Virus record (IMG/VR): IMGVR_UViG_3300005985_000001
Location: 1-64,000 of that record
Strand: one strand, 5' to 3'
Source of the DNA: a virus
Taxonomy: Duplodnaviria > Caudoviricetes
DNA: 64,000 bases
Below the pieces are notes generated by a model. It was not told where the DNA came from. It did no database searches and worked only from the letters and a program-made list of their open reading frames with translations. The first letter of the stretch is position 1. Every line of letters starts with the position of its first letter. A program made the translations under genes and the position numbers. This document shows, piece by piece, positions 1 through 64,000 of the stretch.

Positions 1-1909
1 GTGAACTGCTTTCAGAATCCATATTGATGAGCGCAGTCATTCTACGGCATACTTTATAAACCGAAGATTTCGAGTGCGATGGAAAAGCCCGATACACATC
101 GGCAGTTGTTTTTCCTGTGCTGAGCATGGTTCGAATCGTTTCCATTTCTGCATAGGAAAACGGGTTGCCCCGGTTGGTGATCGGTACAATCACAAAGGGC
201 TGACAGGGAACCGTCTGATCTCGCCAGTAAATTTCAAAATGCATCGAGCCGCGAGAATCAAAATCCGTCAGAATGATACGGTCAACAAGCTCCTGCAAAA
301 TGAGATGCTGGCCGTTTCGGTCCAGTCCTTGCCACCCATGTTCAATCAGTTCTTCGCCGAAGTGTGCTCGAAGGCGTGTCAGATCGTCTAAGGTCAGCTT
401 GCGGACTTGCTTGGGTTCGAGTGCTGCAAGCATCCGGTCGCGTTCCGCTTTATAGTCCCGATACTTGGTTTGACTGCGCTGTATCCAGTCCGGGTCATCA
501 TAGAACTCCATCCCATTGAGCAGGGTTTGCATCTTCTGTTCAACTTCATGGAGTTGACGTTCCAGCAGTCTTCGTTCTGGATGATCTTCTTCCTGGAGAG
601 AAGCCTGCATCTGCGCCCAGCCTTCTTCGGAGAAGGTCACTCGTAGCTGGTTCAGGACGTGATAGACCACCGCCTCATCAATGGTGGCTGCTTGCCGACT
701 CCAGCGGGTTCGAGTAGTTGAGGTTTCAGGATCATAGGGGGAAAGGTAATAACAGTAATGCTTTTGTGTCGGTCTCCAGGCGGCCTGGATCGGCAGGAGT
801 GCCTCGTCTATTTGGCTATAAAGTAACCCCGTACAGAGGGGTCGTTCAGTACCTCGGCGCACTTCAACGCTGGGTCTTGCGTTCTGGCGTACCGGACGAT
901 AATCTGGGTTGGGCGACCCATCGAGCAGGATGGGTGACAGGTAATGAAACGCTCGCCAGTAGACCTCCTCAGAAACTATCGGTTCGTGGTTATTCCAGCG
1001 CACGACCACGCCATCATGCAGCCAGTGCCCGATATAGACCGGATTGATGAGCATCTGGCATAGCCCAGGGCGACTGAGATACCAGCCGCCCTGTCGGGAT
1101 TTGATCTGAAAGCTGAACTTAAAGCCAGTGGGCGGCTGAATGGTTGCTGGATCAGGGAATGAAACATGGTGTTCGTAAATATACTGCTGGGTTCGGGCGA
1201 TATTTCCGCCGAACATGAGAAAGACACGGAAGTATTCTCGGACCACAGCAGCGAAGGGTTCCAGTGGGAAGATACGTCGATGATCGGGATTCGCCAAGCC
1301 AGGTTCGAGTTCCTTACGGGCATCGACCATGTAGCCAATGGAGGGTCCCGCACCGGCCCAGCGTCCTGTTTTCATGAGGTATTTCCGAGCGCCGTTTAGC
1401 TTACCGAGAATCTGGGTGTTGATGTATTCTGCGCCCATTTCGCATTTGAAGCGAAATTGCCGGGCATAAAAAGTGCCCATCTGTGGATGGGCAAAATCAT
1501 AAATGACGGTCGGGGTAATCACCTTCACGTTGGCTTCTTTACAGGCTGCGATGAAGGTATCGACCTGGATCATGGTTTCGTCACGGAAGAAACGATCTTC
1601 ATCCTGCGCGGCAACGGCTCCCACGCGATGATCAAGAATCATGCCAAAAAGCTGACGCATCCCCTCACGTTCGTCAATACGTAGCTTACCACTGACTGCC
1701 ATATCCACATCGATGAGCTTGACTCGTTCTTTTGCCCAGCCCATACCGAGCAGACGTTCATACATATCCACCGTCTGAATAGTGGTCGAGACGTTTCCGA
1801 TCTGTCCCTCAGACGATTGTCGGTAGTATAAGGCTATGTCTCGCTGAATGGGGAGTTCGCTGGAGTGTTGGGGTTCAGCTTCCTCAGCATTTCTAAACTT
1901 TCGGGACAT
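1..1909 (-). CDS. int: Large serine recombinase (phage integrase), 3' end truncated by window edge
   Basis: Manual translation from ATG 1909 (absent from ORF track: no stop before base 1). Catalytic LYYRQS, VSG..R.G..L, DEDRFFRD; recombinase domain MLINPVYIG...NHEPIVSEE; coiled coil; QELVDRII; C-terminal HTH-like tail. Confidence 0.9.
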   Translation of the reverse strand, partial: MSRKFRNAEEAEPQHSSELPIQRDIALYYRQSSEGQIGNVSTTIQTVDMYERLLGMGWAKERVKLIDVDMAVSGKLRIDEREGMRQLFGMILDHRVGAVAAQDEDRFFRDETMIQVDTFIAACKEANVKVITPTVIYDFAHPQMGTFYARQFRFKCEMGAEYINTQILGKLNGARKYLMKTGRWAGAGPSIGYMVDARKELEPGLANPDHRRIFPLEPFAAVVREYFRVFLMFGGNIARTQQYIYEHHVSFPDPATIQPPTGFKFSFQIKSRQGGWYLSRPGLCQMLINPVYIGHWLHDGVVVRWNNHEPIVSEEVYWRAFHYLSPILLDGSPNPDYRPVRQNARPSVEVRRGTERPLCTGLLYSQIDEALLPIQAAWRPTQKHYCYYLSPYDPETSTTRTRWSRQAATIDEAVVYHVLNQLRVTFSEEGWAQMQASLQEEDHPERRLLERQLHEVEQKMQTLLNGMEFYDDPDWIQRSQTKYRDYKAERDRMLAALEPKQVRKLTLDDLTRLRAHFGEELIEHGWQGLDRNGQHLILQELVDRIILTDFDSRGSMHFEIYWRDQTVPCQPFVIVPITNRGNPFSYAEMETIRTMLSTGKTTADVYRAFPSHSKSSVYKVCRRMTALINMDSESSS

Positions 1910-3199: not shown

Positions 3200-3671
3200 T
3201 CATTTCATCTCCCTGAGCATCTGCTCAATCTGTTCTAAGGCACTACAGAGTTCCTGTTTTGCCAGGAGTAAGGCCTGCTTCCTAGCATCTTTATGCTTGA
3301 AGCGTCCTTCAGAACGGATCATACCGAAGGACACAATCCGAATCTTGCTGGCCTCCTTGAACTTGTCCACAATCAGGGTCATCAGGTCGCCGACTTGGAG
3401 TTCGTCGTAGTGAGGACGTTCATGCCATTGCATTGTCATCGTTGTAAACAAACTCATAAGGCGCACCGTCCATGAAGAAATGATCGACTGAACTCATACC
3501 GATAAACTCTTCCTCAAAGTTCTCCTTTACATATGCCATTGCAGCATTCCAGTCATCGACAAAATCTCCACTCTCGAAACGGGTGATTTCACCACCGAGA
3601 GGATTGACCATCACGCCGCGATAGGTCTCTGGTTCGAATTCGTCGTAGTCAATACCGACAAACGCTTTCAT
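3200..3671 (-). CDS. Two hypothetical proteins (3200-3466, 3420-3671)
   Basis: Tandem ORFs on the arm's coding strand. Confidence 0.55.
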
Positions 3672-4177
3672 ACCCGATCCTCTCCTGAATAATCTTGGAA
3701 GTGTTTCACATCAGCCTCGGTTAAAGCGTACCATTCACGTTCGACCTTGCGTTCCGCAAAAACAGCTTTGAAATGCTTTTCGAGTGCGTGCCGATCTGTC
3801 GTATAAATTACATGGGTGAAATCGAGTACTTCTGCGTGGGCTGTTTTGTATGATCTCAGTCTCTGCTTGAGATCATGTGTCTTACCCAACTTCCAAAGTC
3901 TGTTAGGCGCTTTTAGAAGATAGACGTAACCCTTAGCACTTTTGGGTTTTGCGGGCTGCCACAGGTTAATCGAAATTCTCAGGGAACAGATTACAAAAGC
4001 AGTCGAAGTCGTGACTGCGATAGCGAGTAAAAACATGGACCATTCATCAGTGTGTCCGAGAGCTTGGATATACCATTGGTAGATGCCCAAAAAACCAAGT
4101 GATAAAATCGCTAAAGGTGTCTTCGCTAACTCACGAATGTTATCGTAGATGTGAGTATTCTTCTTCTTTATGCCCAT
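3668..4177 (-). CDS. Membrane-anchored GIY-YIG (T5orf172/MUG113-like) nuclease-domain protein
   Basis: Two N-terminal hydrophobic helices, then GYVYLL...WKLGKT...RL..Y...LEK.F...F.ERKVEREWY. Confidence 0.75.
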   Translation of the reverse strand: MGIKKKNTHIYDNIRELAKTPLAILSLGFLGIYQWYIQALGHTDEWSMFLLAIAVTTSTAFVICSLRISINLWQPAKPKSAKGYVYLLKAPNRLWKLGKTHDLKQRLRSYKTAHAEVLDFTHVIYTTDRHALEKHFKAVFAERKVEREWYALTEADVKHFQDYSGEDRV

Positions 4178-16889: not shown

Positions 16890-17996
16890 TCAGGACTGAG
16901 CATGAGCCACCAACTTGGCGAAAAGTTCGTCCCGTCCTTCGATGGTAAATTTCTCGCCAAGCACTGCCACTGCCTTTGCAATCGCAGCGGCATTTGGGTA
17001 ATGCCCATTGCTGATGAGATCCTGGATAAACGCATTCCGCGCGGTATTGAGTGCAACCTGGGCATCAGCCTCCGCTTTGTTCAAGTCGATCTGCGCCTGC
17101 TCGTCGGCAGAAATTACCTGTATGGATGGATCGTGCTCTACCGTGTTCAAATCGCCATAGTCGGCTTGTGGGGCTGCCATGTAGCCAGCAATCAGTTCTG
17201 GGTAAGGTTGTCCGGCATATTCCGGTTCCAGGCGCACCGGCAGCAGTTCGCGGAGAATTGGGCGGGTGCGTTTATCTTCAGGCTTGCCCCAATCCCACCA
17301 GGTCAACCGTGATTTCTTGACCATTGCCCAATGTTTCCCTTCTGGAGTTCGATCTAGCCAGAGCACCAGCGTAGCGATTTCCATGAAATCTGCGCCTCTG
17401 GCGGCTTTCTGGCCCGTTTTTACATTGTTGTTGTAGACATCCTTGATGTGCGACACAAACACGGTGGTCTGGAACCGCTGAGCCAGTTCGAGAGCCAATT
17501 GTTTCCAGTAGAGTGCGGTATCGCCCCACTGGGCCTTAATGCCCATCTCGCCGCTGTAACGCTGGGCAGTTTTGCCAAAAAGTTCAGGGTGTGCGCCCAC
17601 GTACATGAACGCGCCCTGATAGAGATCGCTCACTGGATCTACGCCCAGGACTGTGTATTGTCCCGGCTGAATTGCTAGAATCTCATCACGCCATACCTCG
17701 AAGAGATCCTTAAACGTATAATCTTTCCCAATCTTTTCACGGGTAATTTTACGGATGTCAAGCAGATCAATCGGCGCTTGGGTTGCAATGGTTTCCTGCG
17801 ACATTTCCAAATCCGTCACCAGTGTACGTGTTGGTGTACCTGGACGAACCGGATCAACTGTCGCAATAAATGTCGATTTCCCAGTTTTATAAGCCCCGAT
17901 AATCCAAATAAAAGGAATGGGACTTAAACCTTGTACATCACTTACATTTTGGATAAATGTAGACGGCCAAATCGCAGAAACCGCAGGGGTCTGCAT
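16890..17996 (-). CDS. AAA_24/Sak4-like ATPase (ssDNA annealing protein candidate)
   Basis: Walker A GAYKTGKST, VLGVDPVSDLY, VFVSH; near an exonuclease gene. Confidence 0.7.
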   Translation of the reverse strand: MQTPAVSAIWPSTFIQNVSDVQGLSPIPFIWIIGAYKTGKSTFIATVDPVRPGTPTRTLVTDLEMSQETIATQAPIDLLDIRKITREKIGKDYTFKDLFEVWRDEILAIQPGQYTVLGVDPVSDLYQGAFMYVGAHPELFGKTAQRYSGEMGIKAQWGDTALYWKQLALELAQRFQTTVFVSHIKDVYNNNVKTGQKAARGADFMEIATLVLWLDRTPEGKHWAMVKKSRLTWWDWGKPEDKRTRPILRELLPVRLEPEYAGQPYPELIAGYMAAPQADYGDLNTVEHDPSIQVISADEQAQIDLNKAEADAQVALNTARNAFIQDLISNGHYPNAAAIAKAVAVLGEKFTIEGRDELFAKLVAHAQS

Positions 17997-52616: not shown

Positions 52617-53143
52617 TGGCGTACCAGGATGAGAGCGTCCTCAACATCCTCATCGATGCAATGGATGAGCGCCTGAATGAAGTGCTGGTGGGCGAATCCA
52701 ACGATGAGACCAAAGCCGGTCTGGTGCGTCCGGGCAACCTTCAGGAAGACCCCACCGATGCTGGCATCAACATTCTGATCCACGAAGGCGGCGTGGACTG
52801 GCAGGATGAACTCTATGTCGAGCAACACGGCATCGATGCGCCCACCTACGAAATTGGCGGTGTTGAATACTGGTTCCGTCGCTTTGAGATTGAACTGGAA
52901 CTCTTCTTTGATGGCGAAGACCAACGCGAACCTCCACGACGAAAAGCTTTGATCATTTACTCACGTGCCAAAAAAGCCCTCACCAGCATGGACATTCCTA
53001 CTGAAAAAGACAGTTTTGGAGAGCAGGCGCACATGATTCAGGTACGCAAAGGCTACACCTCCGAAGGCGGCGGTGAAGGCACGTTCATCTGGAATTGCTA
53101 CCTCTTTGTCGAATTTCTGACGAGTATCCGCGCCAATGCCTAA
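52616..53143 (+). CDS. Neck / tail-terminator-like protein
   Basis: 175 aa acidic protein, position between adaptor and tail tube. Confidence 0.55.
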   Translation: MAYQDESVLNILIDAMDERLNEVLVGESNDETKAGLVRPGNLQEDPTDAGINILIHEGGVDWQDELYVEQHGIDAPTYEIGGVEYWFRRFEIELELFFDGEDQREPPRRKALIIYSRAKKALTSMDIPTEKDSFGEQAHMIQVRKGYTSEGGGEGTFIWNCYLFVEFLTSIRANA

Positions 53144-54218
53144 TGTGATTGCGATCTTTCCCGGCAAGGAACGCACACCGGGAGGCTGTGAGATTTACCG
53201 CACCACCATGCCCTACTATCATCTTCAGAAGAAACACCCTGACTGGAAAGCGGACTGGGTATTTGGTGAAACCCTCTGGACGGACATCATGACCCGAGGA
53301 CCCATTGCCGCCAAGCAGTTTGCCGATCAGTATGACATCTTTGTGTTTCCCCGAAACTACGTCAAAGATGAAACAGGATTGGATAACTACCGTGAAATCA
53401 CTGATCTTTTGCATCATCTGGGTAAGCGCCTGATCTACGAAGTGGATGATGATCTGACCAATCAGGAACGTCAGGTCATTAACGGTGATGCAGTGAGTGT
53501 TGCCAAGCTCTGCGATGCTATCACGGTTACGACCAAAGCCCTCGGCGACCTGATGAAAGCCAGAACCGGCAAGCCCGCCTACGTGCTGCCGAATATGTTT
53601 GCCCCAGAAACCTGGCTGGAGCCTTTTGCCGGAACGTTCCGTTATGCCGACAAGATCACGATTGGTTTGACCGGCTCTCCCACACACGAACGCGATTGGG
53701 AAGTGCTCAAAGATGTGCTGCCGAAAGTCGTTCAGGATAATGGTGTGCATCTGGTGCTCATGGGCTATCACCCAGAGTATCTTCAGGATTTACCAAATAC
53801 TTCCTATATTCCAGGTTTGCAGTATAATAGATATGCGCAAGTCATCCAGACTTGCGACATTATCCTCGCTCCACTCAATCACGAAGTTTTCAATCTTAGT
53901 AAATCCCCGATAAAAGTCCTTGAAGGACAAGCTGCCCGACGCTTCATTGACAAGCGTCCCGCAGGAGCCGCCTGTATTGCCACTGATCATCCGGTCTATC
54001 GACTTGCCATAAAGCCTGAAAAAACCGGATTGCTCGTTGAGCATACGCCGAGCGCCTGGCAGGAAGCTCTGGATCGCATGATCTATGATGAGCGCCTGCG
54101 GCATCAGCTTCAATTCAACGGTCATGAATGGGTGCAGAAGCACCACGACATCTCCAAGACCGCAACCCTCTGGCGCAACGCCTACGAAAGCATTCTCCGC
54201 AAACCCATCCCCGCTTAA
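53136..54218 (+). CDS. GT-B (family 4-like) glycosyltransferase
   Basis: IYEVDDDL, CDAITVTTKALGD, VLPN, IGLTGSPTHERDW, DIILAPL...FN.SKSPIKVLE, TGLLV. Confidence 0.88.
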   Translation: MPNVIAIFPGKERTPGGCEIYRTTMPYYHLQKKHPDWKADWVFGETLWTDIMTRGPIAAKQFADQYDIFVFPRNYVKDETGLDNYREITDLLHHLGKRLIYEVDDDLTNQERQVINGDAVSVAKLCDAITVTTKALGDLMKARTGKPAYVLPNMFAPETWLEPFAGTFRYADKITIGLTGSPTHERDWEVLKDVLPKVVQDNGVHLVLMGYHPEYLQDLPNTSYIPGLQYNRYAQVIQTCDIILAPLNHEVFNLSKSPIKVLEGQAARRFIDKRPAGAACIATDHPVYRLAIKPEKTGLLVEHTPSAWQEALDRMIYDERLRHQLQFNGHEWVQKHHDISKTATLWRNAYESILRKPIPA

Positions 54219-55368: not shown

Positions 55369-55788
55369 ATGCGTTTGTCCAAGAAGCCCGTTGAGAAGAC
55401 ATTTACGAAAGACTTTGGCGGGGATAAGCCTGCCAGCATCACCGTCCGGCAGGCCAACATCGGCGACATCACCAAGCGTAATGGACTCCTTTCGGAGTCC
55501 TCGCTGGTACTCAATGATGAATTGCTCGGTCAGGAAATCAAGCAGGACATCAATTACTACGAGTTGTTCCGCTTTGAAGTGTTCCTGACCCTGACGGCTG
55601 CGAACTTCGAAGACGAGGACACCGGTGAGTCTTATTTCACCTTCGTGAATGGACGCCTGCGCGACCAAGCTGCTTTCGAGAAAGCTTGGAATGCCATGAC
55701 AGACATCGAAGTCGCGGACTGGATTCACGAGTGCGTGGTGGAAGTCAACCCACAGTGGAGCCGCCAGGTAGCAGACGCGGGGGAATAG
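55369..55788 (+). CDS. Tail assembly chaperone (gpG-like)
   Basis: 139 aa acidic protein ending in the GGGGGAA slippery site. Confidence 0.75.
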   Translation: MRLSKKPVEKTFTKDFGGDKPASITVRQANIGDITKRNGLLSESSLVLNDELLGQEIKQDINYYELFRFEVFLTLTAANFEDEDTGESYFTFVNGRLRDQAAFEKAWNAMTDIEVADWIHECVVEVNPQWSRQVADAGE

Positions 55789-56111
55789 ACCGCCACTTGA
55801 AGGCAGTAGGTGATGCTGTCTTCGAGTGGCTGAGTTATCACGAGCCGACTGCTCACGACCCACACGGGATCGGAGCAAAACCTGAAGGACCCGAGCCGGA
55901 GCGACCAGAAGCCTATGACATTCTTCTGCAACTCCGGCGTTTTCACTTAACCTGGGCGCAGGGCGGCTACGAAGACCAGCCCTGGCTGCTCACTGAAGAA
56001 CTCAATGCTGCGTCTGACGCGGAGACCCGGCACAAAAACTTAATTTTATTGAATCAGAAGCGCCGAGAAGAGTGGGCGGCTTCTCAGAAAGCAAAAGGTC
56101 TGCTGACATGA
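55369..56111 (+). CDS. Tail assembly chaperone, -1 frameshift product (gpGT-like)
   Basis: GGGGGAA at 55779-55785 just before TAG; the -1 frame stays open to 56111. Confidence 0.75.
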
Positions 56112-59100
56112 GACTTCGGCGCAACATGGCGTTCAATGCCAACCTCGATGTAGACAATCAGGATCACTACCGGCACTTGATGAATCGCCTGGATCGTGAA
56201 GGCATCAAGTACGGGATGAATGATGTCGATCTGGGCTTTGGGCGGAACCTCACGGCGATCACCATCAACCAGCGCATCCGCGATAAGGACGTGCAAAGCC
56301 ACCTCTTCTATGGTCCCGAAGGTGGCTTATATGTCTCTAACCCGAACAACACGGGTGGCGTGCGTCCGATCCTGTCCACCATTCGGTTCAATAAAGATGA
56401 ATCTATCTCGCCTTCCAATCCTCTGATGTCGCCGGTGGATCGTGTGATTAACATGATCCAGAATCCAAATTGGGAAGACCCAAAGACCAAGCGAGTTTCG
56501 CAGTATGGCTTGTCTACGCTGGCACAGAAACAGGGAGCAGATAACGTCTCCTGGCAGCGTCTCGAAGCCCAACCCGGTCTGGATCGCCTGTTTCGCAACG
56601 GCGTTCAACTGAGCGGTGAAAAGTATAGTTATAACGATAAGATTGACCAGCTTAATCGCGCAACCGGAAGTGATTATGTCAACTACGCGAGAGTAGGCGC
56701 AGCATATCGGGCGAAAGATTACGAGGCGGTGATTCCCACCAACAATGCTGGTGGAATGCTCATTTCAAAACTGAAGGAAGCAAAACTTTTCACCGGTAAA
56801 GTTTCGGATGCCGTCATTGGCAGAAACATCTACGAGCCATCCCCGGAGCCTTTCTACTTTGAAGGTCAGGCAGGTCCGAATCAGTCGGTCGTGCTTCGTG
56901 GCGCATTTGATCTTTTCTCGGAAATCCCTGAAGGCGCAGCATTTACGGCTGGTTTAGGGGCTGCCAATCGCATCAGTCGTACAGTAACACTCCCAAGAGG
57001 GACGACCTATGATCCCGATACAGGTGGGTTGACGCTGGCAAATGGCACCGCCTTAAGTGCGGGAACCTATTTTGGCGGGAAGCCGCCCGGCAGTTATAGT
57101 GACTATACCCGCCTGGGTGGAAAACGTGAATATAACGACATCTTTGGCGTTTCAATGGGAAGTTATCACTCGACGCTGATCGAGAATATTGTTCCCGAAC
57201 TCAATGATCGTGGGCAGTTCACGGGTCGAGCAACCTTTGATGCGCGTGCCATTACCAAAGACGTAGCCATAAAATCATGGATAAAAGCCGAAGGGATGGA
57301 CATTCACCGTTCGGCAATGCCTTTTGACGAGGAAACAGATCGGCATGTCGATACCTGGATGCGCTTGCCCGATCTCAAGAAACTGCCTGCACTGGCTTTA
57401 AAAGCCCTTGCCGCAGATATGAATAATACAGAAGCTTTTGGGCAATGGTTCGGTGAACAGGCGTCTGCGCGTGGGATGTCAGCGGACTGGATTGCTCAGA
57501 ATTTCCAGAATGGGCAGGTCAGTAAAGAAGCCACGCCACTGGTAACAGAGGCAGCCATTCAGCGTTTATTAAGCAAGGCAACGTACAATCCACAAAATCC
57601 GCGTCGGAATGTTCCATTAGGATCAACTGAATACGAAGCCTTTCGTAATGTGACCTTTATCCATCAGGGACAGTCCTACAATGTACTTGGAAATGTACAA
57701 GCCCGCGATGATGGAACCTATCTTGCGGAGACTTTCCATACACCCCGGATTGTCACCGACTACGCGACTAATGTGCGTACTGAACATGTGCGCGATACGA
57801 TGCGAATTAAGCCGGGAACGCTGTCCATCATGGCACAGAATAACCCGGAACTCTTTGATTCGCTGACATCCATTGCTCAGGCAACCCGGAAGAACAACCG
57901 CGCTTTTGCCATGACCTCGGCATTTCGCGCCAATAGTTCATCCGAACAACGTCAGGCAGTGCAGGATATATTTGGTATCGACAAACTGGATATTGCTCAG
58001 GTCGGACGTTTACGAGAAGAATATCTGTCGAATAACACGGATGTCAGTGATAGTGGCATGTTCCGTCACATTCTCAGTGGATTGGCTGAGCAGTATGGCG
58101 AGCAAGCACTGGAACTGAAGACTCCACAGGGGTCGATGATCCTACCCAATGCCCGAACGATTCGGGCAGGATTGCGACGAAACAATGATAACCCGGAATT
58201 AATCAACAACTGGTCAAAAAGTGCAGCGGGTCTGATTACTGCACTAGGGGATGATTCTATTTCTCCCGATATTATTCAGAACATGGCCAATGACACTTAT
58301 GCCAGAATGGAAGAACATTCTGGCAAGCGGGGTGTTCAGCAAAAAGCCACGAGTATTGAACTCGGGCGGTTAGGCGGTTTTGCGCGTTCAACGCCTGGTA
58401 TTCCCGATAACATGGCAATTACCTCATTGGCAACCATTCAAAAACGGACGGGTATCGAGAATCCTGATGAGATACGCCGGATGGCAGCGCAAGGTGACCT
58501 TGTGCTCTCTGGCTGGCGCTATCCCTCTACGCACGCGAAAGACTTTGCTGCATCGGTTCGACTGGGCATTTATGAAGATCAACCGCAGTGGTACAAAGAT
58601 CGCTATCTAAATCCAGGAAGGGATGTTTACACCTCTCCTGAAATCATGCGGGCGTTGCGCGGAGACAATGATGGCGACCGCTTTCAAGCTGTCCTAAATC
58701 GTTTTCGAACGCAAGCAGCCGAATTCGGGAAATCCCTTACTGCACTCACGCCAAGACAGGTCGTTCAACGTGCAGCCAATGCGTTTGAGAGCGAACGCAC
58801 CAAGTTCATCAAAACGATGGCGGAACGTTCCGGGATGGATCTGGCGAACACACCTTTGTCTGCGTTCTCATCTTTCTCCTATTCCCAGAAACAAATGCGC
58901 GAAGATTTTCTCACAGAGGAGCGAGAAGCCAAGAGTCTGATTGGCATCAACACCAACACCTTTAACCGCAGTATGGGGATGGCAGCGCGTTCTGGTGCAG
59001 AGCAGCTTTTTGGAGTCGATAGTCCGCTGACGGACCGGATTGCAGTGGCGTTTTCGAGCATTGAGAATATCACCGGCGCATCAGCACTCGACCGCGCTGC

Positions 59101-62100
59101 TAACAAGGACACTGCTCTGGAATACTTGCAGCAGGTGGGACAGGACAAGGGGCTGTATCGCACAGGTGCACGATTCTGGAACCGCTCAACCGGCAAAACT
59201 CTGACCGGACCAGAATCTCAATTCCAGGAAATTTTTAAACAACTTTCTAGTATTGGTTCTAACCTGGAAGGTGAGCCGGTGCTGGGTATTAGCCCAGATC
59301 AGGAATACCGGCAAAAACTAGCGCCTGCGATTGCGACGGCAATGCTCACGCGCGACGAGATGAAACGCCTGGCGGATTCTGGCGAACTGGATCAGCGCAT
59401 CAACCAGATGGCAGATATGCTTACTCAGCGCCGTGCCACTGGAGAAGACATCAGCACCCAGCTTTTGCCACTGACCGGCGCTGCAAAATTTGCGGAGTGG
59501 GGTGAAGGCAACGGTTCTGGATTGGGTTCACAGTCCAGTATTGGACAGTGGATTACTGGACAGATTGCCAATAACTATCGCTTGTCACAACGCAAAGATA
59601 AAAGTGGCAATAAGATGGTTGACGCCAACGGGAAACCCGTCATTATGGGTGAGTTCCCGACCGACTGGGGCGCACAGTATGAGAATGCAGGCAAGATTGC
59701 CCAGAGCATACAAGAATTTAATACCAATCTCGGCAAGCGGCGAGGGAATAATACACTGGAACAGGCGGTTCGCTCAGTAGCCGGTGGCGGCGAACGTCTG
59801 AAAAACTTCCTCGGTGGTATGTTCCCTGGACTGGCGCAGGCTACACAGCGATTCGCTGTTGCACCGGTTGATGATCCAAGTTTGTACAATCCAGGCGCTT
59901 ACCTGACCGCCTCACAGTGGACCAGTGGCACCGGAGTAGACGATGAACTGCTGCGTCTGGTGAATTTGAACACCACCTCAGCGGAACGTTCCGGCGTAAT
60001 TGCCGAACTGATGAAGTCCGGTGCATTCCAGGAGTATCGTCCCTACAGCGGTCCTGCCAATAACGCGGATAAAGTCGGGACGCGCATGGAGAATGTGCTG
60101 ACCGGCAAACTGGCAGCCCCTGAGAACCAACAGATTCTTATGGCGAATGCTCGGCGTCGTATGGGCAACTCTCGGGCGGACTTCGGGATGCGCGACAGTG
60201 CAGGCAACCTGGTAGTCGGTGACATCAAGACCAAGAGCCGCACGGGGCTGATGAGTGACCTTCTGGGTCCGTCTCTGCGTGGCGACATCATGGGTCAGGT
60301 CTCCAACTACATCACCGGTACTCGTATCGACGGCGGCGAACGTCAGACCGGCGATTACGGCGTGGTCGTAGGCGGGATTCGTCTTAGCGACAACCCGAAC
60401 ATGCCGGAATCTGAAGTCGCGGCTGGGTTCGAGCAGGCGCACGATCTGGCGATGCAGATGTACAGTAACAGCCAGATGCCGACTTCATGGGCAAATGCAG
60501 GCTGGACGCAGGAACGATGGGAGTCTCATCGTCAAGCCTCGATGCAGGCCATGCAGGACATTTACGCCGCTTCGGGGATGAAAGTGGCTGCGCGGGTTGT
60601 GACCGGTGAAGAAGCAGAACAGTTCCTCAATGCCCGTCAGGGCGACATCTACAATCTGAAGTCGATTCGTCCTGAGCATCGTGCTGCGGACATGGCGGGT
60701 CGTGCGCAGCAAATCATGGCGCTGCGTGGTGGCGGCAATATCAGTGGTTCTGGAGTAGGCTCTCCGCCCCCTCCAAACATGCCTGGCGCACCTCCGGCTC
60801 CACCTTCGGGCGACGATGGCTATGTTCCGTCCAGTGCCAGTGGAAGCGGCGGCTCGGGTGGCGGCGGCTCAGTGGTCAACAATAACACTGTCTACCGGAT
60901 GTCCAACCCACGCATCACATCCAAGCAGATTGCCGAAGCAGAGATCGCACTGGAACATCTTGGCGAAGCCGCGAAGACCTTTGCAACCGGATCTAAAGAA
61001 GCCCGCGAAGAGATGCTCAAGCACTACGATGCTTTGAAGACTGTCTCTTCATACCTGAGTGACGTGGAGCGGGCACAGCGTTCGCCGGACGGCTTCAATA
61101 CCAACAATCCTAACTATCTTCTGCTTCAGCAGCGATTGGGCAGCGGGCGTGCAGGTGGCTCGGCGTTTGGCACCATCAACAATGCCGTTTATGATCCTGC
61201 ATTGAGCAATGCGGCTTATGAAGCCCAGCTTGCCAATATGCGAGACACCGGCGAAGAGCCGCCGCAATCTCGGCTCCAGCGCATGATGCGCGGCGGGCAG
61301 GATCTCGCTGAACGTATCATCAAAACGCAGGGCTTGTTCCATGCAAAGCTGGCGTTCAATATGTTTGCAGGCTCGGCGATTGGCGCAGCCGATAACTGGC
61401 AGGATCAGCAAGCTGCACAGGGAATGATGCTGGCACAAGCCGGTCAGTTGACGTTCAATCAACTGATGGGCAGTCAATTCGGAACCATGCAGCGTCGTAA
61501 CATCGCCCTTCAGGAAGGCGGGCTTGCCTATGGGCAACAGGTCTACAGCGCCTATGCGCCGTTGATCAACTTCGCAGCCGGTCCCGACACTGCGAAAGGT
61601 CCGCTGGGCGCAATGGCAGGGATTGGCGTGCCTGCGTTTGGCGTTGCGGCGGCTGCGACGACACTTACTGGCAGTCCTCTCTTTGGTGCTGTAGCGGGTG
61701 GTGTCACAGCCGGTATCGGCACGCTTGGCTATATGTCATCGAATGCCGTAAACTATCAGGCAGTCGGCGCATTTAATCAGCAGCGCAATGCCGGGATGGG
61801 CTTACAGGCAATGTTCCAGAATACAGCCGGAGCAGCCGGGGCTTTCTGGAATGATCTGGGGCGCGGGTTGGGTCTTGTTTCCGACGAAGACTACCAGCGG
61901 TATCTGGATGCGCCTCAGTTCAACGACCTGATTCAACGTTATTCACGCGGCGAAGTTGGGCGTCAGGAAGCAATTGCTCAAGCCGAAGCCATGCGTTTCA
62001 ATGGTGGCGACCTGATGGCAGGTGGCTTGGAGGCCTGGGTGCAGTCCCAGACTCGCGCAGGTGCATCTCGTGAAACGGCATTGAGCAACTACAGCTACTG

Positions 62101-64000
62101 GGCACGTTATAATCCGAATTATATGCCAGGCGGCGACCTTGCCGGTCAGATGACCCGCATTGCAATGGGCGGCGGGGATACAGGAACGGTTGCCCAGTCC
62201 TTCGCTGGATCGCGCGGTATCAGCCCGTTTAGTCAGTCTATGATGGATAGCGTAAATCGCTATGCCATGAACATGCTCACTGATCAACAGAATATGGGCT
62301 TGTTCACGGAAGCATCCAGCTTTGTGGGACAGCAGATTGGTGGTGTCAATCAGGCACTGCGTATGGCAGGACTGGGTAGCAGCCAGGCTGATCTCCTTCA
62401 GATGGTGCAATTCCTGCAAAATGGTGGGTCACTTGACCAGTTCAATGCAGGACTTCAGAGCCGAGGTACTGCTGCCTCGCTTCGCATGAGTACACCGGGT
62501 TTCTTCGATGTGGGTGGCTATCGACTGAAAGATAACTGGGAAGTATTCTCTGGTCAGGGTGATTTTGTCACGACTGAACGCTTGCAGCAGCAGGCAATGC
62601 AAGCCGGGCAGATGTATAACCAGTTCCTCGCCAATGGCGCTTCGCCGGGAGATGCCTTTGCCAATGCTTACCGCTACGGCACGGACTACGATGAAGCCAG
62701 CGCGAACCGTCAATTCCAAATGCTTCAGGGCAATCAGCGAGTCATTTCACTTGAAGGTGTCCGAACCCAGAATGCTGCATTGCAAACGATCAATCCGAAC
62801 ACGGGGATGGGCGCATACTACAACAACGTCAATGCCGAGAATATCGCGGCGCTGAGAGCCAACAATCCCTTTGGCTTGTTCAACCTCACCGACGAAGAAG
62901 CACGCATGGGCGAGATGGGCTGGCAGAACCAGATCCTGCGCGCCAATCGCGGGCTGGAAGCTTACCAGTATGGGATGCGAGTGCGTCAGCGTGATCTGGG
63001 CTATGCGCTCACCACTGGCAATATGTTCCAGGCAGGGGGTCTGTTCGGTGCAGACGGAATGGCATTCAACCCCGGCGATGGCAGAGGCTTCTGGCAATTG
63101 GAAGATGCATCTCGTCGTCTGAATCGTGCGCAGCAGTCCTTCTCGTATGAGCAGGATACGGCACAACTGGGGATTCGTCAGCGTGAATTCGAGCTTTCTG
63201 GTTTGCAGTGGCAGACCAATTACGAATTGCAGCAGCGCCAGTTTGCATACAATACGCAGTATCAACGCGAAACACTGGGCATCTCGCGTGGACGCGAACT
63301 GGAACAGCAAAGCTGGCGACGAGAGGATCTTGCTTTTTCCAGATCACAACTCGATATTGGCTTTGCGTGGAATATGGAAGATGCAGATCGCAATATCCGC
63401 TATGCGCGTGGGCGTGAGAAGCGCGATCTGATGCGTCAGAAAGCCCGCGAAGTCATTCGCTACTCGATGGAATCGTCTCAACTGGATCGTCAGACCGAGC
63501 GCAATGAACAGCAAGTCGGCTGGTCGCAGCAGGACTTCGAGCGCCAGAAGCAGTATTTCGAACAGGGCGTTCAGTTCCAGAAAGAGGCGATGGAGAACCA
63601 GAAGAAGTTCTACGACCAGAACCGTGAACTGGATCGCCAGCGTCTTGACCTGGCAAAGCAGGCGCATGACCGTCAACTGGGCTGGATGCAGGAAGGCTGG
63701 CAGATCGAAGATCAGCGTATCCTGCTCGAACGCCAGAACTACCAGTTGTCCTACAAGCAGCAGGTCGATATGGATACCCGGATTCGTGAGAACACGCTCA
63801 CGGTGCAGCGATGGAGCGATGCGATTGATCAGGCAGGACGTGTCATGCAGGAACGGATTGCAGCGATCAATACTGCGGTGAGTACCGGGAACATCACTAG
63901 CCCACAAGCGCAACGGAACCTGAACAATTATTCCTATACAGGCTTGTCGCAGGATTCGGGTAGTGGCAGCAGTTCGAGCGGCACGGGATTGCCCGTGAAT
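56108..64000 (+). CDS. Giant tape-measure-position protein (>2630 aa, 3' truncated) with RNA-polymerase-like and PD-(D/E)xK nuclease domains
   Basis: ATG overlaps the chaperone stop (ATGA); frame read by hand over most of its length and open at the window end. RYP (aa 804-806), GDNDGD (aa 852-857), RADF...VGDIKT...QVSNY (aa 1356-1401), Pro/Gly linker, then Ala/Gly/Gln helical and coiled-coil region. Confidence 0.88.
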   Translation, partial: MRLRRNMAFNANLDVDNQDHYRHLMNRLDREGIKYGMNDVDLGFGRNLTAITINQRIRDKDVQSHLFYGPEGGLYVSNPNNTGGVRPILSTIRFNKDESISPSNPLMSPVDRVINMIQNPNWEDPKTKRVSQYGLSTLAQKQGADNVSWQRLEAQPGLDRLFRNGVQLSGEKYSYNDKIDQLNRATGSDYVNYARVGAAYRAKDYEAVIPTNNAGGMLISKLKEAKLFTGKVSDAVIGRNIYEPSPEPFYFEGQAGPNQSVVLRGAFDLFSEIPEGAAFTAGLGAANRISRTVTLPRGTTYDPDTGGLTLANGTALSAGTYFGGKPPGSYSDYTRLGGKREYNDIFGVSMGSYHSTLIENIVPELNDRGQFTGRATFDARAITKDVAIKSWIKAEGMDIHRSAMPFDEETDRHVDTWMRLPDLKKLPALALKALAADMNNTEAFGQWFGEQASARGMSADWIAQNFQNGQVSKEATPLVTEAAIQRLLSKATYNPQNPRRNVPLGSTEYEAFRNVTFIHQGQSYNVLGNVQARDDGTYLAETFHTPRIVTDYATNVRTEHVRDTMRIKPGTLSIMAQNNPELFDSLTSIAQATRKNNRAFAMTSAFRANSSSEQRQAVQDIFGIDKLDIAQVGRLREEYLSNNTDVSDSGMFRHILSGLAEQYGEQALELKTPQGSMILPNARTIRAGLRRNNDNPELINNWSKSAAGLITALGDDSISPDIIQNMANDTYARMEEHSGKRGVQQKATSIELGRLGGFARSTPGIPDNMAITSLATIQKRTGIENPDEIRRMAAQGDLVLSGWRYPSTHAKDFAASVRLGIYEDQPQWYKDRYLNPGRDVYTSPEIMRALRGDNDGDRFQAVLNRFRTQAAEFGKSLTALTPRQVVQRAANAFESERTKFIKTMAERSGMDLANTPLSAFSSFSYSQKQMREDFLTEEREAKSLIGINTNTFNRSMGMAARSGAEQLFGVDSPLTDRIAVAFSSIENITGASALDRAANKDTALEYLQQVGQDKGLYRTGARFWNRSTGKTLTGPESQFQEIFKQLSSIGSNLEGEPVLGISPDQEYRQKLAPAIATAMLTRDEMKRLADSGELDQRINQMADMLTQRRATGEDISTQLLPLTGAAKFAEWGEGNGSGLGSQSSIGQWITGQIANNYRLSQRKDKSGNKMVDANGKPVIMGEFPTDWGAQYENAGKIAQSIQEFNTNLGKRRGNNTLEQAVRSVAGGGERLKNFLGGMFPGLAQATQRFAVAPVDDPSLYNPGAYLTASQWTSGTGVDDELLRLVNLNTTSAERSGVIAELMKSGAFQEYRPYSGPANNADKVGTRMENVLTGKLAAPENQQILMANARRRMGNSRADFGMRDSAGNLVVGDIKTKSRTGLMSDLLGPSLRGDIMGQVSNYITGTRIDGGERQTGDYGVVVGGIRLSDNPNMPESEVAAGFEQAHDLAMQMYSNSQMPTSWANAGWTQERWESHRQASMQAMQDIYAASGMKVAARVVTGEEAEQFLNARQGDIYNLKSIRPEHRAADMAGRAQQIMALRGGGNISGSGVGSPPPPNMPGAPPAPPSGDDGYVPSSASGSGGSGGGGSVVNNNTVYRMSNPRITSKQIAEAEIALEHLGEAAKTFATGSKEAREEMLKHYDALKTVSSYLSDVERAQRSPDGFNTNNPNYLLLQQRLGSGRAGGSAFGTINNAVYDPALSNAAYEAQLANMRDTGEEPPQSRLQRMMRGGQDLAERIIKTQGLFHAKLAFNMFAGSAIGAADNWQDQQAAQGMMLAQAGQLTFNQLMGSQFGTMQRRNIALQEGGLAYGQQVYSAYAPLINFAAGPDTAKGPLGAMAGIGVPAFGVAAAATTLTGSPLFGAVAGGVTAGIGTLGYMSSNAVNYQAVGAFNQQRNAGMGLQAMFQNTAGAAGAFWNDLGRGLGLVSDEDYQRYLDAPQFNDLIQRYSRGEVGRQEAIAQAEAMRFNGGDLMAGGLEAWVQSQTRAGASRETALSNYSYWARYNPNYMPGGDLAGQMTRIAMGGGDTGTVAQSFAGSRGISPFSQSMMDSVNRYAMNMLTDQQNMGLFTEASSFVGQQIGGVNQALRMAGLGSSQADLLQMVQFLQNGGSLDQFNAGLQSRGTAASLRMSTPGFFDVGGYRLKDNWEVFSGQGDFVTTERLQQQAMQAGQMYNQFLANGASPGDAFANAYRYGTDYDEASANRQFQMLQGNQRVISLEGVRTQNAALQTINPNTGMGAYYNNVNAENIAALRANNPFGLFNLTDEEARMGEMGWQNQILRANRGLEAYQYGMRVRQRDLGYALTTGNMFQAGGLFGADGMAFNPGDGRGFWQLEDASRRLNRAQQSFSYEQDTAQLGIRQREFELSGLQWQTNYELQQRQFAYNTQYQRETLGISRGRELEQQSWRREDLAFSRSQLDIGFAWNMEDADRNIRYARGREKRDLMRQKAREVIRYSMESSQLDRQTERNEQQVGWSQQDFERQKQYFEQGVQFQKEAMENQKKFYDQNRELDRQRLDLAKQAHDRQLGWMQEGWQIEDQRILLERQNYQLSYKQQVDMDTRIRENTLTVQRWSDAIDQAGRVMQERIAAINTAVSTGNITSPQAQRNLNNYSYTGLSQDSGSGSSSSGTGLPVN

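Follow-up and report, generated by a model that had tools for sequence, protein, structure and literature searches.

Can the tail of a phage deliver a nuclease into the cell as a part of its tape measure protein? This question is raised by a giant tail gene of an uncultured phage (Duplodnaviria; Caudoviricetes) represented by the 83,741-bp IMG/VR virus genome IMGVR_UViG_3300005985_000001; the window analyzed here is the stretch of bases 1–64,000 of this record. An earlier note, made from the letters of the window, had described inside the tape measure polyprotein a RecB/Cas4-like PD-(D/E)xK nuclease domain situated between a region resembling RNA polymerase and a Pro/Gly linker. The sequence comparisons and structural modeling reported below indicate that a complete and conserved RecB-type active site is present inside the tape measure protein. 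On balance, amino acid residues about 1262–1545 are likely to represent a real metal-dependent nuclease, probably active, which would be delivered within this protein. The features bearing on this statement are as follows (residues are numbered from the ATG at 56108, as in the database gene call P0002 and in the earlier note):

56108–64375 (the window ends at 64000), plus strand: giant tail gene encoding 2,755 residues, with an ATG start at 56108 and an alternative GTG start at 56072.
59891–60742, plus strand: predicted PD-(D/E)xK (RecB/lambda-Exo-like) nuclease domain, about residues 1262–1545, recognized by its AlphaFold2 model, structural neighbors, and hidden Markov model (HMM) matches of an orthologue.
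59900–59920, plus strand: YLTASQW, residues 1265–1271; its LTAS part (59903–59914), with L1266 and S1269 invariant, matches ITAS (residues 32–35) of lambda Exo in position.
60074–60091, plus strand: VGTRME, residues 1323–1328, harboring the helix motif G1324-x-x-M-E1328 (60077–60091) with a candidate metal-site glutamate; GTRME-N here resembles GKQYE85-N of lambda Exo.
60179–60229, plus strand: putative catalytic beta-hairpin, with D1358 of SRADF (60179–60181) on strand 2 and D1372-I-K1374-T-K of LVVGDIKT (D1372–K1374 at 60221–60229) on strand 3.
60296–60310, plus strand: Q1397-x-x-x-Y1401 (GQVSNY), in the helix following strand 3.

All five motifs (YLTASQW, VGTRME, SRADF, LVVGDIKT, and GQVSNY) reside in one open frame, the translation of 56072–63998, in the order and at the positions described earlier. 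The bare motif series is weak if taken alone, since the loose pattern D...(D/E)xK...QxxxY appears in 13% of the shuffles of the giant protein. A strict pattern (D, 9–16 residues, hh.[DE]hK[TS], 18–35 residues, Qh..Y), set after viewing the sequence, was encountered in 0.02% of 5,000 such shuffles. At the sequence level, the conservation of the catalytic residues represents a stronger argument than the motif pattern alone. An exhaustive phmmer search among 1.84 billion representative proteins retrieved, besides the giant protein itself, only three homologues, 2,791–2,894 residues long. The four proteins share 30–51% identity across the nuclease region, where 15–18% of the columns of the four-way alignment are invariant overall; the residues L1266, S1269, G1324, M1327, E1328, D1358, D1372, K1374, T1375, K1376, Q1397, and Y1401 are invariant in all four.

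Comparisons with known families gave sequence-level signals which are individually weak yet agree on the PD-(D/E)xK assignment. The domain of the orthologue P0005 matches PDDEXK_1 (PF12705) with 19.3 bits (E 1.2e-3), i.e., under the cut-off of 22; it also matches YraN (E 1.6e-2) and, at E 6.6e-3, the nuclease region at the C-terminus of AddA. Each of these three families belongs to the PD-(D/E)xK superfamily, and each match falls on the motif region. Alignment by hhalign of a three-sequence profile of the domain with the nuclease domain of Escherichia coli RecB returned a single alignment (P 0.047) in a register placing D1358, D1372, and K1374 on D1067, D1080, and K1082 of RecB, respectively. 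A profile search of PDB sequences pointed to the Cas4 protein SSO0001 at the catalytic-hairpin motif (E 2).

The other sequence searches were negative within their scope. Even at E up to 10, the models PF12705, PF01930 (Cas4), and PF09588 (YqaJ) found no match anywhere in the genome of the phage. Phmmer with the domain against PDB sequences returned nothing, as did the full-length profile against PDB, which also failed to recover gp96 of the Thermus phage P23-45 (see below); one domain profile that included the full-length fourth row gave low-complexity matches only. Searches by tblastn with residues 1–1548 or with the tape part as query gave no match in 50,697 phage records, and blastn gave none either; no relatives emerged from a related-locus search of viral and metagenome contigs with the domain or its alignment. 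The domain profile detected no stand-alone relatives among proteins of 176–588 residues, and hhalign of this profile with lambda Exo, residues 1100–2000 of gp96, or the phage's own Cas4-like protein produced no meaningful alignment.

The structure prediction set beforehand as a check on the nuclease claim returned a restriction-endonuclease-like fold, the nearest structures being MGME1, Cas4, lambda Exo, and RecE. The AlphaFold2 model of the domain, built from the four-sequence alignment, has a mean predicted local distance difference test score (pLDDT) of 64 and a predicted template modeling score (pTM) of 0.62; the pLDDT amounts to 65–81 in the core and 83–93 in the C-terminal alpha/beta part, and the first 60 residues are disordered. 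At the model level, the alpha-beta-beta-beta-alpha-beta core hallmarking this fold is recognizable, its first strand being modeled without confidence. In terms of model residues, E1328 is placed in helix 103–118, D1358 at the start of strand 142–145, D1372 and K1374 in strand 151–159, and Q1397 together with Y1401 in helix 175–186. Beyond the QxxxY helix, the model continues with strand 200–207 and then a helix-strand-helix unit. The modeled fold covers about 59891–60742 and is longer than the range noted earlier (59880–60480).

The searches of structural libraries with this model converged on one kind of enzyme. Foldseek against PDB placed MGME1, Cas4 SSO0001, ACE1, SPARDA, DXO1, LHK-Exo, NucS, and lambda Exo at the top of its list. 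When VIA was run exhaustively over 48,161 chains, PD-(D/E)xK nucleases, a class assigned from the entry titles, occupied 23 of the 25 top rows, with Z-scores of 4.0–6.6 over 140–175 residues. These rows include MGME1, SSO0001, 3k93, Cas4-Cas1, LHK-Exo, Hjc, lambda Exo, RecE, and Dna2, as well as Pcal_0546, EXO5, R354, the Epstein–Barr virus (EBV) alkaline nuclease, AdnA, ACE1, AddB, a cap-snatching endonuclease, and PspGI. MGME1 scored Z 6.4 over 165 residues, SSO0001 Z 6.2, and lambda Exo Z 5.6 over its chain residues 31–226; a second look with VIA agreed, with Z 6.5 for MGME1 (over 152 residues) and Z 5.8 for lambda Exo (over chain residues 31–220). In BFVD, a YqaJ-domain exonuclease ranked first (probability 0.95, E 2.2e-3), ahead of PD-(D/E)xK nucleases of phages and exonucleases of the lambda type. 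A low-quality model of residues 240–1110 of the same protein served as an internal control; it attained equally high Z-scores, but with unrelated helical proteins. With the motifs, their invariance, the sub-threshold matches of the orthologue, and the predicted fold all pointing the same way, residues ~1262–1545 (59891–60742) very probably form a PD-(D/E)xK domain of the RecB/lambda-Exo type, in line with the family assignment made earlier.

The likeness of the domain to particular members of this superfamily is uneven. Human MGME1 is its best solved structural neighbor (Z 6.4–6.5, 14–15% identity). The resemblance to lambda Exo covers nearly the whole chain of the latter (model residues 49–309 against chain residues 31–220, Z 5.6–5.8) and extends to the order and spacing of the motifs. 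Thus, LTAS (1266–1269) parallels ITAS (32–35), G1324...E1328-N parallels G81...E85-N, D1358 parallels D119, and D1372xK1374 parallels E129xK131; a Q-containing helix comes next, and neither protein has an Fe-S cluster. However, the phage domain ends with the QxxxY form typical of RecB, AddAB, and Cas4, whereas lambda Exo possesses QxQ, and it finds no match with the YqaJ HMM. Furthermore, the phage exonucleases of this kind (lambda Exo, RecE, LHK-Exo, and YqaJ) are free early enzymes encoded beside an annealing protein, whereas here the domain is embedded in a tail protein. With RecB, AddA, AddB, and AdnAB, it shares the (G)xxD, hhDhK(T/S), and QxxxY motifs and the catalytic register of RecB, but it remains under the Pfam gathering score, lacks a helicase partner domain, and is carried by a virion tail component.

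The likeness to Cas4, included in the label given earlier, is confined to the fold and the catalytic motifs (SSO0001, PDB 4ic1, Z 6.2–6.4). Cas4 is hallmarked by four cysteines holding an Fe-S cluster. By contrast, the domain, as well as all four homologous proteins, is devoid of cysteine and yields no match with PF01930. Since the giant protein contains zero cysteines, its sequence excludes an Fe-S cluster of the Cas4, AddB, Dna2, or EXO5 type; hence the term "Cas4-like" fits the fold only and fails in one defining respect.

A separate Cas4-like gene is located in the early part of the same genome (18438–19340, minus strand, 300 residues), adjoining a gene of a Sak4-like AAA_24 ATPase (16890–17996). 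Its product displays the motifs HASSLMDCP, GRYDGFV, IEVKH, and FQLLAY and C-terminal cysteines (S-x-S...CP, D, ExK, QxxxY) and is matched only by phrog_1706 (E 3e-5), not by Pfam; hhalign detected no relation between it and the tail-borne domain. Judging by its sequence and neighborhood, this early protein is probably the recombination exonuclease of the phage. The tail-borne domain was considered for the role of general recombination exonuclease as well, and this candidate was dropped, the canonical Cas4-like gene sitting beside the Sak4-like ATPase.

The carrier of the domain had been taken for a tape measure protein, which raises the question of how it can be recognized as such. The parts of the locus involved are listed below:

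55369–55788 and 55686–56111, plus strand: two overlapping small open reading frames (ORFs) resembling a G/GT chaperone pair, the second in the -1 frame and directly 5' of the giant gene.
60743–60883, plus strand: Pro/Gly/Ser-rich linker, residues 1546–1592 (G 18%, P 15%, S 13%).
60884–64000 (continuing past the window), plus strand: tape-measure part, a hydrophobic segment followed by Gln/Arg-rich helical repeats.
Window 56108–64000 and beyond; L004:10001–18685; L005:5462–13966; L008:13288–28296; L009:1043–3604: the cysteine-free giant genes compared.

No curated tape-measure HMM of Pfam or PHROGs matched the 2,642-residue part of the giant protein encoded in the window, and Pfam found in this protein no domain of any kind, peptidase included. 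Still, its identification as the tail tape measure protein is accepted as supported by the sequence, because the gene order, the gpH-like C-terminal motif, the hydrophobic segment, the helical stretches, and the absence of cysteine point in this direction. The gene order, with a small-gene pair upstream of the giant gene, is conserved in the homologous contigs. No canonical XXXYYYZ slippery heptamer was seen in the overlap of the two small ORFs, which ends with GCGGGGGAATAG. The Ala/Gly-rich hydrophobic segment spans residues 1831–1880 (61598–61747) within the part containing the long helical region. Near the C-terminus, the stretch FAQGGYTGTGDPNEVAGVVHKEEYVVPQ, encoded beyond the end of the window, coincides with residues 733–760 of lambda gpH at 15 of 28 positions. 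The linker runs at 60743–60883, close to the 60730–60880 given for it before.

Cysteine is absent from all 2,755 residues of the giant protein, compared with 0.66% in the other proteins of this phage (P about 1e-8). It is likewise absent from all four giant homologues (2,755–2,894 residues), from gp96 of P23-45 (5,002 residues), and from lambda gpH (853 residues). Judging by these sequences, tape measure proteins seem to avoid cysteine in general, their enzyme domains included.

The region preceding the nuclease is the third component of the fusion described earlier, in which RNA polymerase, nuclease, and tape are combined:

56825–59137, plus strand: RNA-polymerase-like region with invariant R804-Y-P806 and G852-D-x-D-G-D-R858.

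The nuclease and tape components of this fusion are supported; for the polymerase component, the indications are the RYP...GDxDGDR signature and a weak match by hhalign. The two motifs span 58517–58678 (DNDGD at 58664–58678) and are invariant across the four homologues. Alignment by hhalign of the full alignment with residues 340–520 of the E. coli beta' subunit produced a single alignment (P 0.041), in which residues 835–860 lie on the strand and the NADFDGD loop. The AlphaFold2 model of residues 240–1110 is of low confidence (pLDDT 54, pTM 0.31), and the fold searches with it yielded generic helical matches only; it contains a beta-rich block (model residues 48–143, pLDDT about 80), and the pLDDT around the DxDGD loop is below 50. 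The motif signature and the weak profile match make the polymerase reading of the N-terminal part plausible and fairly probable.

A fusion of this kind has a precedent. As documented by Chaban et al. (PMC10770324, 2024), the N-terminal part of the 5,002-residue tape measure protein of the Thermus phage P23-45, gp96, is a virion RNA polymerase. It carries the motif 779-DFDGD-783 and transcribes pre-early genes, the rest of gp96 being described as metallopeptidase and membrane domains; the word "nuclease" does not occur in that paper (PMC10770324). Both proteins are giant cysteine-free tape measures with an N-terminal DxDGD motif (853-DNDGD-857 in the present phage), and the genomes are laid out alike. 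They measure 84.2 kb (P23-45, L008) and 83.7 kb, and in each the early arm of ~43 kb points leftward, the terminase lies near 44 kb, and, 9–12 kb past it, the tape measure gene follows tail genes. No similarity of the giant protein to gp96 is detectable by sequence or profile, and in the present phage the polymerase-like part is followed by the nuclease domain. The suggestion that the whole combination had not been described is thus untenable for the fusion of polymerase and tape measure (P23-45 gp96, PMC10770324); for the nuclease it persists, since full-text searching of a literature library brought up no paper in which a tape measure protein contains a nuclease domain. It stands that the polymerase-tape fusion is of a known kind and that the inserted nuclease is the new element.

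What could such a domain do in the virion? By analogy with the biology of tape measure proteins, the protein would be stored in the tail and leave it before the DNA does, and the enzyme modules of its N-terminal part would reach the cytoplasm and fold on that side. The enzyme would be expected to be Mg-dependent and to act on DNA ends, because its nearest relatives (MGME1, Cas4, lambda Exo, RecE, EXO5, and Dna2) are nearly all DNA-end processors. The substrate favored here is the end of the phage genome that enters first, from which the 5'-ended strand would be removed; making template for the polymerase was also a role proposed in the earlier note. By geometry, the remaining 3'-ended strand would be the template for the genes pointing inward from that end, and the resulting 3' tail could be a poor substrate for the host RecBCD or AddAB. 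This specific version, the resection of the 5' strand at the first-entering genome end, is built on analogy and is put forward tentatively, as a possibility that we consider doubtful. It can be extended to an "inject, resect, transcribe" machine, in which the copies of the tape measure protein assemble their nuclease domains, perhaps into a ring like that of lambda Exo, where the DNA channel opens into the cytoplasm; the domains would strip the 5'-ended strand of the entering end, and the fused polymerase would transcribe the exposed single-stranded template. We regard this extension as unlikely; if true, it would account for the access of an injected two-barrel polymerase, which has no melting factors, to its template.

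Several points weigh against the view that an active nuclease is delivered with the tape measure protein. The giant protein's own sequence retrieved nothing relevant from Pfam, PHROGs, NCBIfam, or PDB sequences, and none of the nuclease-family HMMs reached its curated threshold. The model was derived from a shallow alignment of four sequences, its pLDDT is 64, and the first core strand is not confident (below 50 at model residues 124–139). None of the Foldseek matches in PDB has an E-value below 0.14, let alone 1e-3. The structural Z-scores of 4–6.6 are middling (the tool's own mark is Z <8), so the weight of the fold evidence rests on the uniformity of the lists. A folded domain of ~280 residues must sit in, or traverse, the narrow tail tube. 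Finally, the terminal overlap of the genome looks like a product of circular assembly and not like the physical ends to which the argument about the leading end refers. Specifically, the ends of the record are identical over exactly 123 bp (1–123 and 83619–83741), and position 1 falls within a serine recombinase ORF (2–1909, minus strand). Because the identity is exact and position 1 lies inside an ORF, what might be called a direct terminal repeat is read as the overlap of a circular assembly, which is probably what it is.

Of the competing explanations, the one faring best, though improbable, takes the nuclease for an ejected anti-host weapon that degrades or nicks the host chromosome, plasmids, the DNA of rival phages, or a defense component; an attack on host DNA was the second role suggested in the earlier note. 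Early degradation of host DNA is an established phage strategy, and delivery by the tape measure places the enzyme in the cell ahead of phage gene expression. At the same time, an enzyme tethered to a membrane-spanning tape measure (the hydrophobic segment) would have a short reach unless cleaved off, its copy number per virion would be low, and no host target is indicated by the sequence.

The nuclease fold could also function as a non-catalytic module binding DNA or its ends, e.g., as a holder or cap for the end of the genome, either within the tail or at the exit of the channel, or solely as an assembly element. PD-(D/E)xK folds are commonly reused as binding modules, and end-protecting virion proteins exist in other phages; the extreme divergence of the domain, with no HMM above threshold, would fit such reuse. 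However, all catalytic residues of the RecB-type site, among them E1328, the two acidic residues, the lysine, and those of QxxxY, are invariant at 30–51% identity, whereas inactivated domains normally lose some of these residues, and this explanation seems quite unlikely as well.

Still less can be said for an RNA endonuclease partnering the adjoining polymerase in the processing or termination of transcripts or in the cutting of host RNA. It would form a single chain with a polymerase-like module, paralleling the PD-(D/E)xK cap-snatching endonucleases of bunyavirus and arenavirus polymerases, and both cap-snatching and DXO-type RNA nucleases are among the structural matches (Z 3.7–4.4). Nevertheless, all the matches that rank higher and extend further are to DNA exonucleases, and the QxxxY and LTAS/G..E motifs belong to the DNA enzymes RecB and lambda Exo, which makes an RNA substrate very unlikely.

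That there is no nuclease at all, the motif series being coincidental (the loose pattern is met in 13% of shuffles) and the model and its matches being artefacts of a shallow alignment (every score is weak: Z no higher than 6.6, Foldseek E in PDB no lower than 0.14, hhalign P 0.047, Pfam below the cut-off), is hardly credible, as weak signals of independent origin agree on a single family, the residues of the motifs are invariant, the lists from three structure libraries consist almost uniformly of nucleases while the control model gives none, and the sequence of the orthologue alone matches three different PD-(D/E)xK families.

The preferred reading, a tail-delivered and probably active nuclease, belongs to a genome of the following organization. 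The minus-strand genes at ~1–43 kb encode, among others, a large serine recombinase, RecA, DnaB, primase, the Sak4-like AAA_24 ATPase, and DnaN. The large serine recombinase suggests a temperate or integrative lifestyle of the phage. At the same end of the early arm as the serine recombinase (2–1909), a gene at 3668–4177 (minus strand) codes for a protein with a T5orf172/MUG113 (GIY-YIG-like) domain. From 44.6 kb, the plus strand carries, in this order, the genes of terminase, portal, major head protein, a glycosyltransferase-like protein, and a tail protein (phrog_290), followed by the two small overlapping ORFs and the one giant ORF, with tail-like genes downstream. The glycosyltransferase-like gene (53136–54218, plus strand; phrog_7162, E 9e-26) thus lies within the head-tail structural block; the homologous contigs L004 and L005, as well as the contig that encodes P0004, have it at the same position.

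Tape measure proteins are known as carriers of cell-wall hydrolases. A nuclease would add a further class of enzymes delivered by the tail before any gene expression, beyond the hydrolases and, since 2024, RNA polymerase. The family is tiny (four sequences among 1.84 billion representatives) and was missed by every curated HMM, exposing a blind spot of phage annotation. A nuclease of ~280 residues surviving storage in the tail tube or passage through it would also present an interesting case of protein folding. If the enzyme acts on the end of the genome as it enters, two questions would receive a testable answer: how an injected polymerase lacking melting factors comes to its template, and how this end avoids RecBCD.

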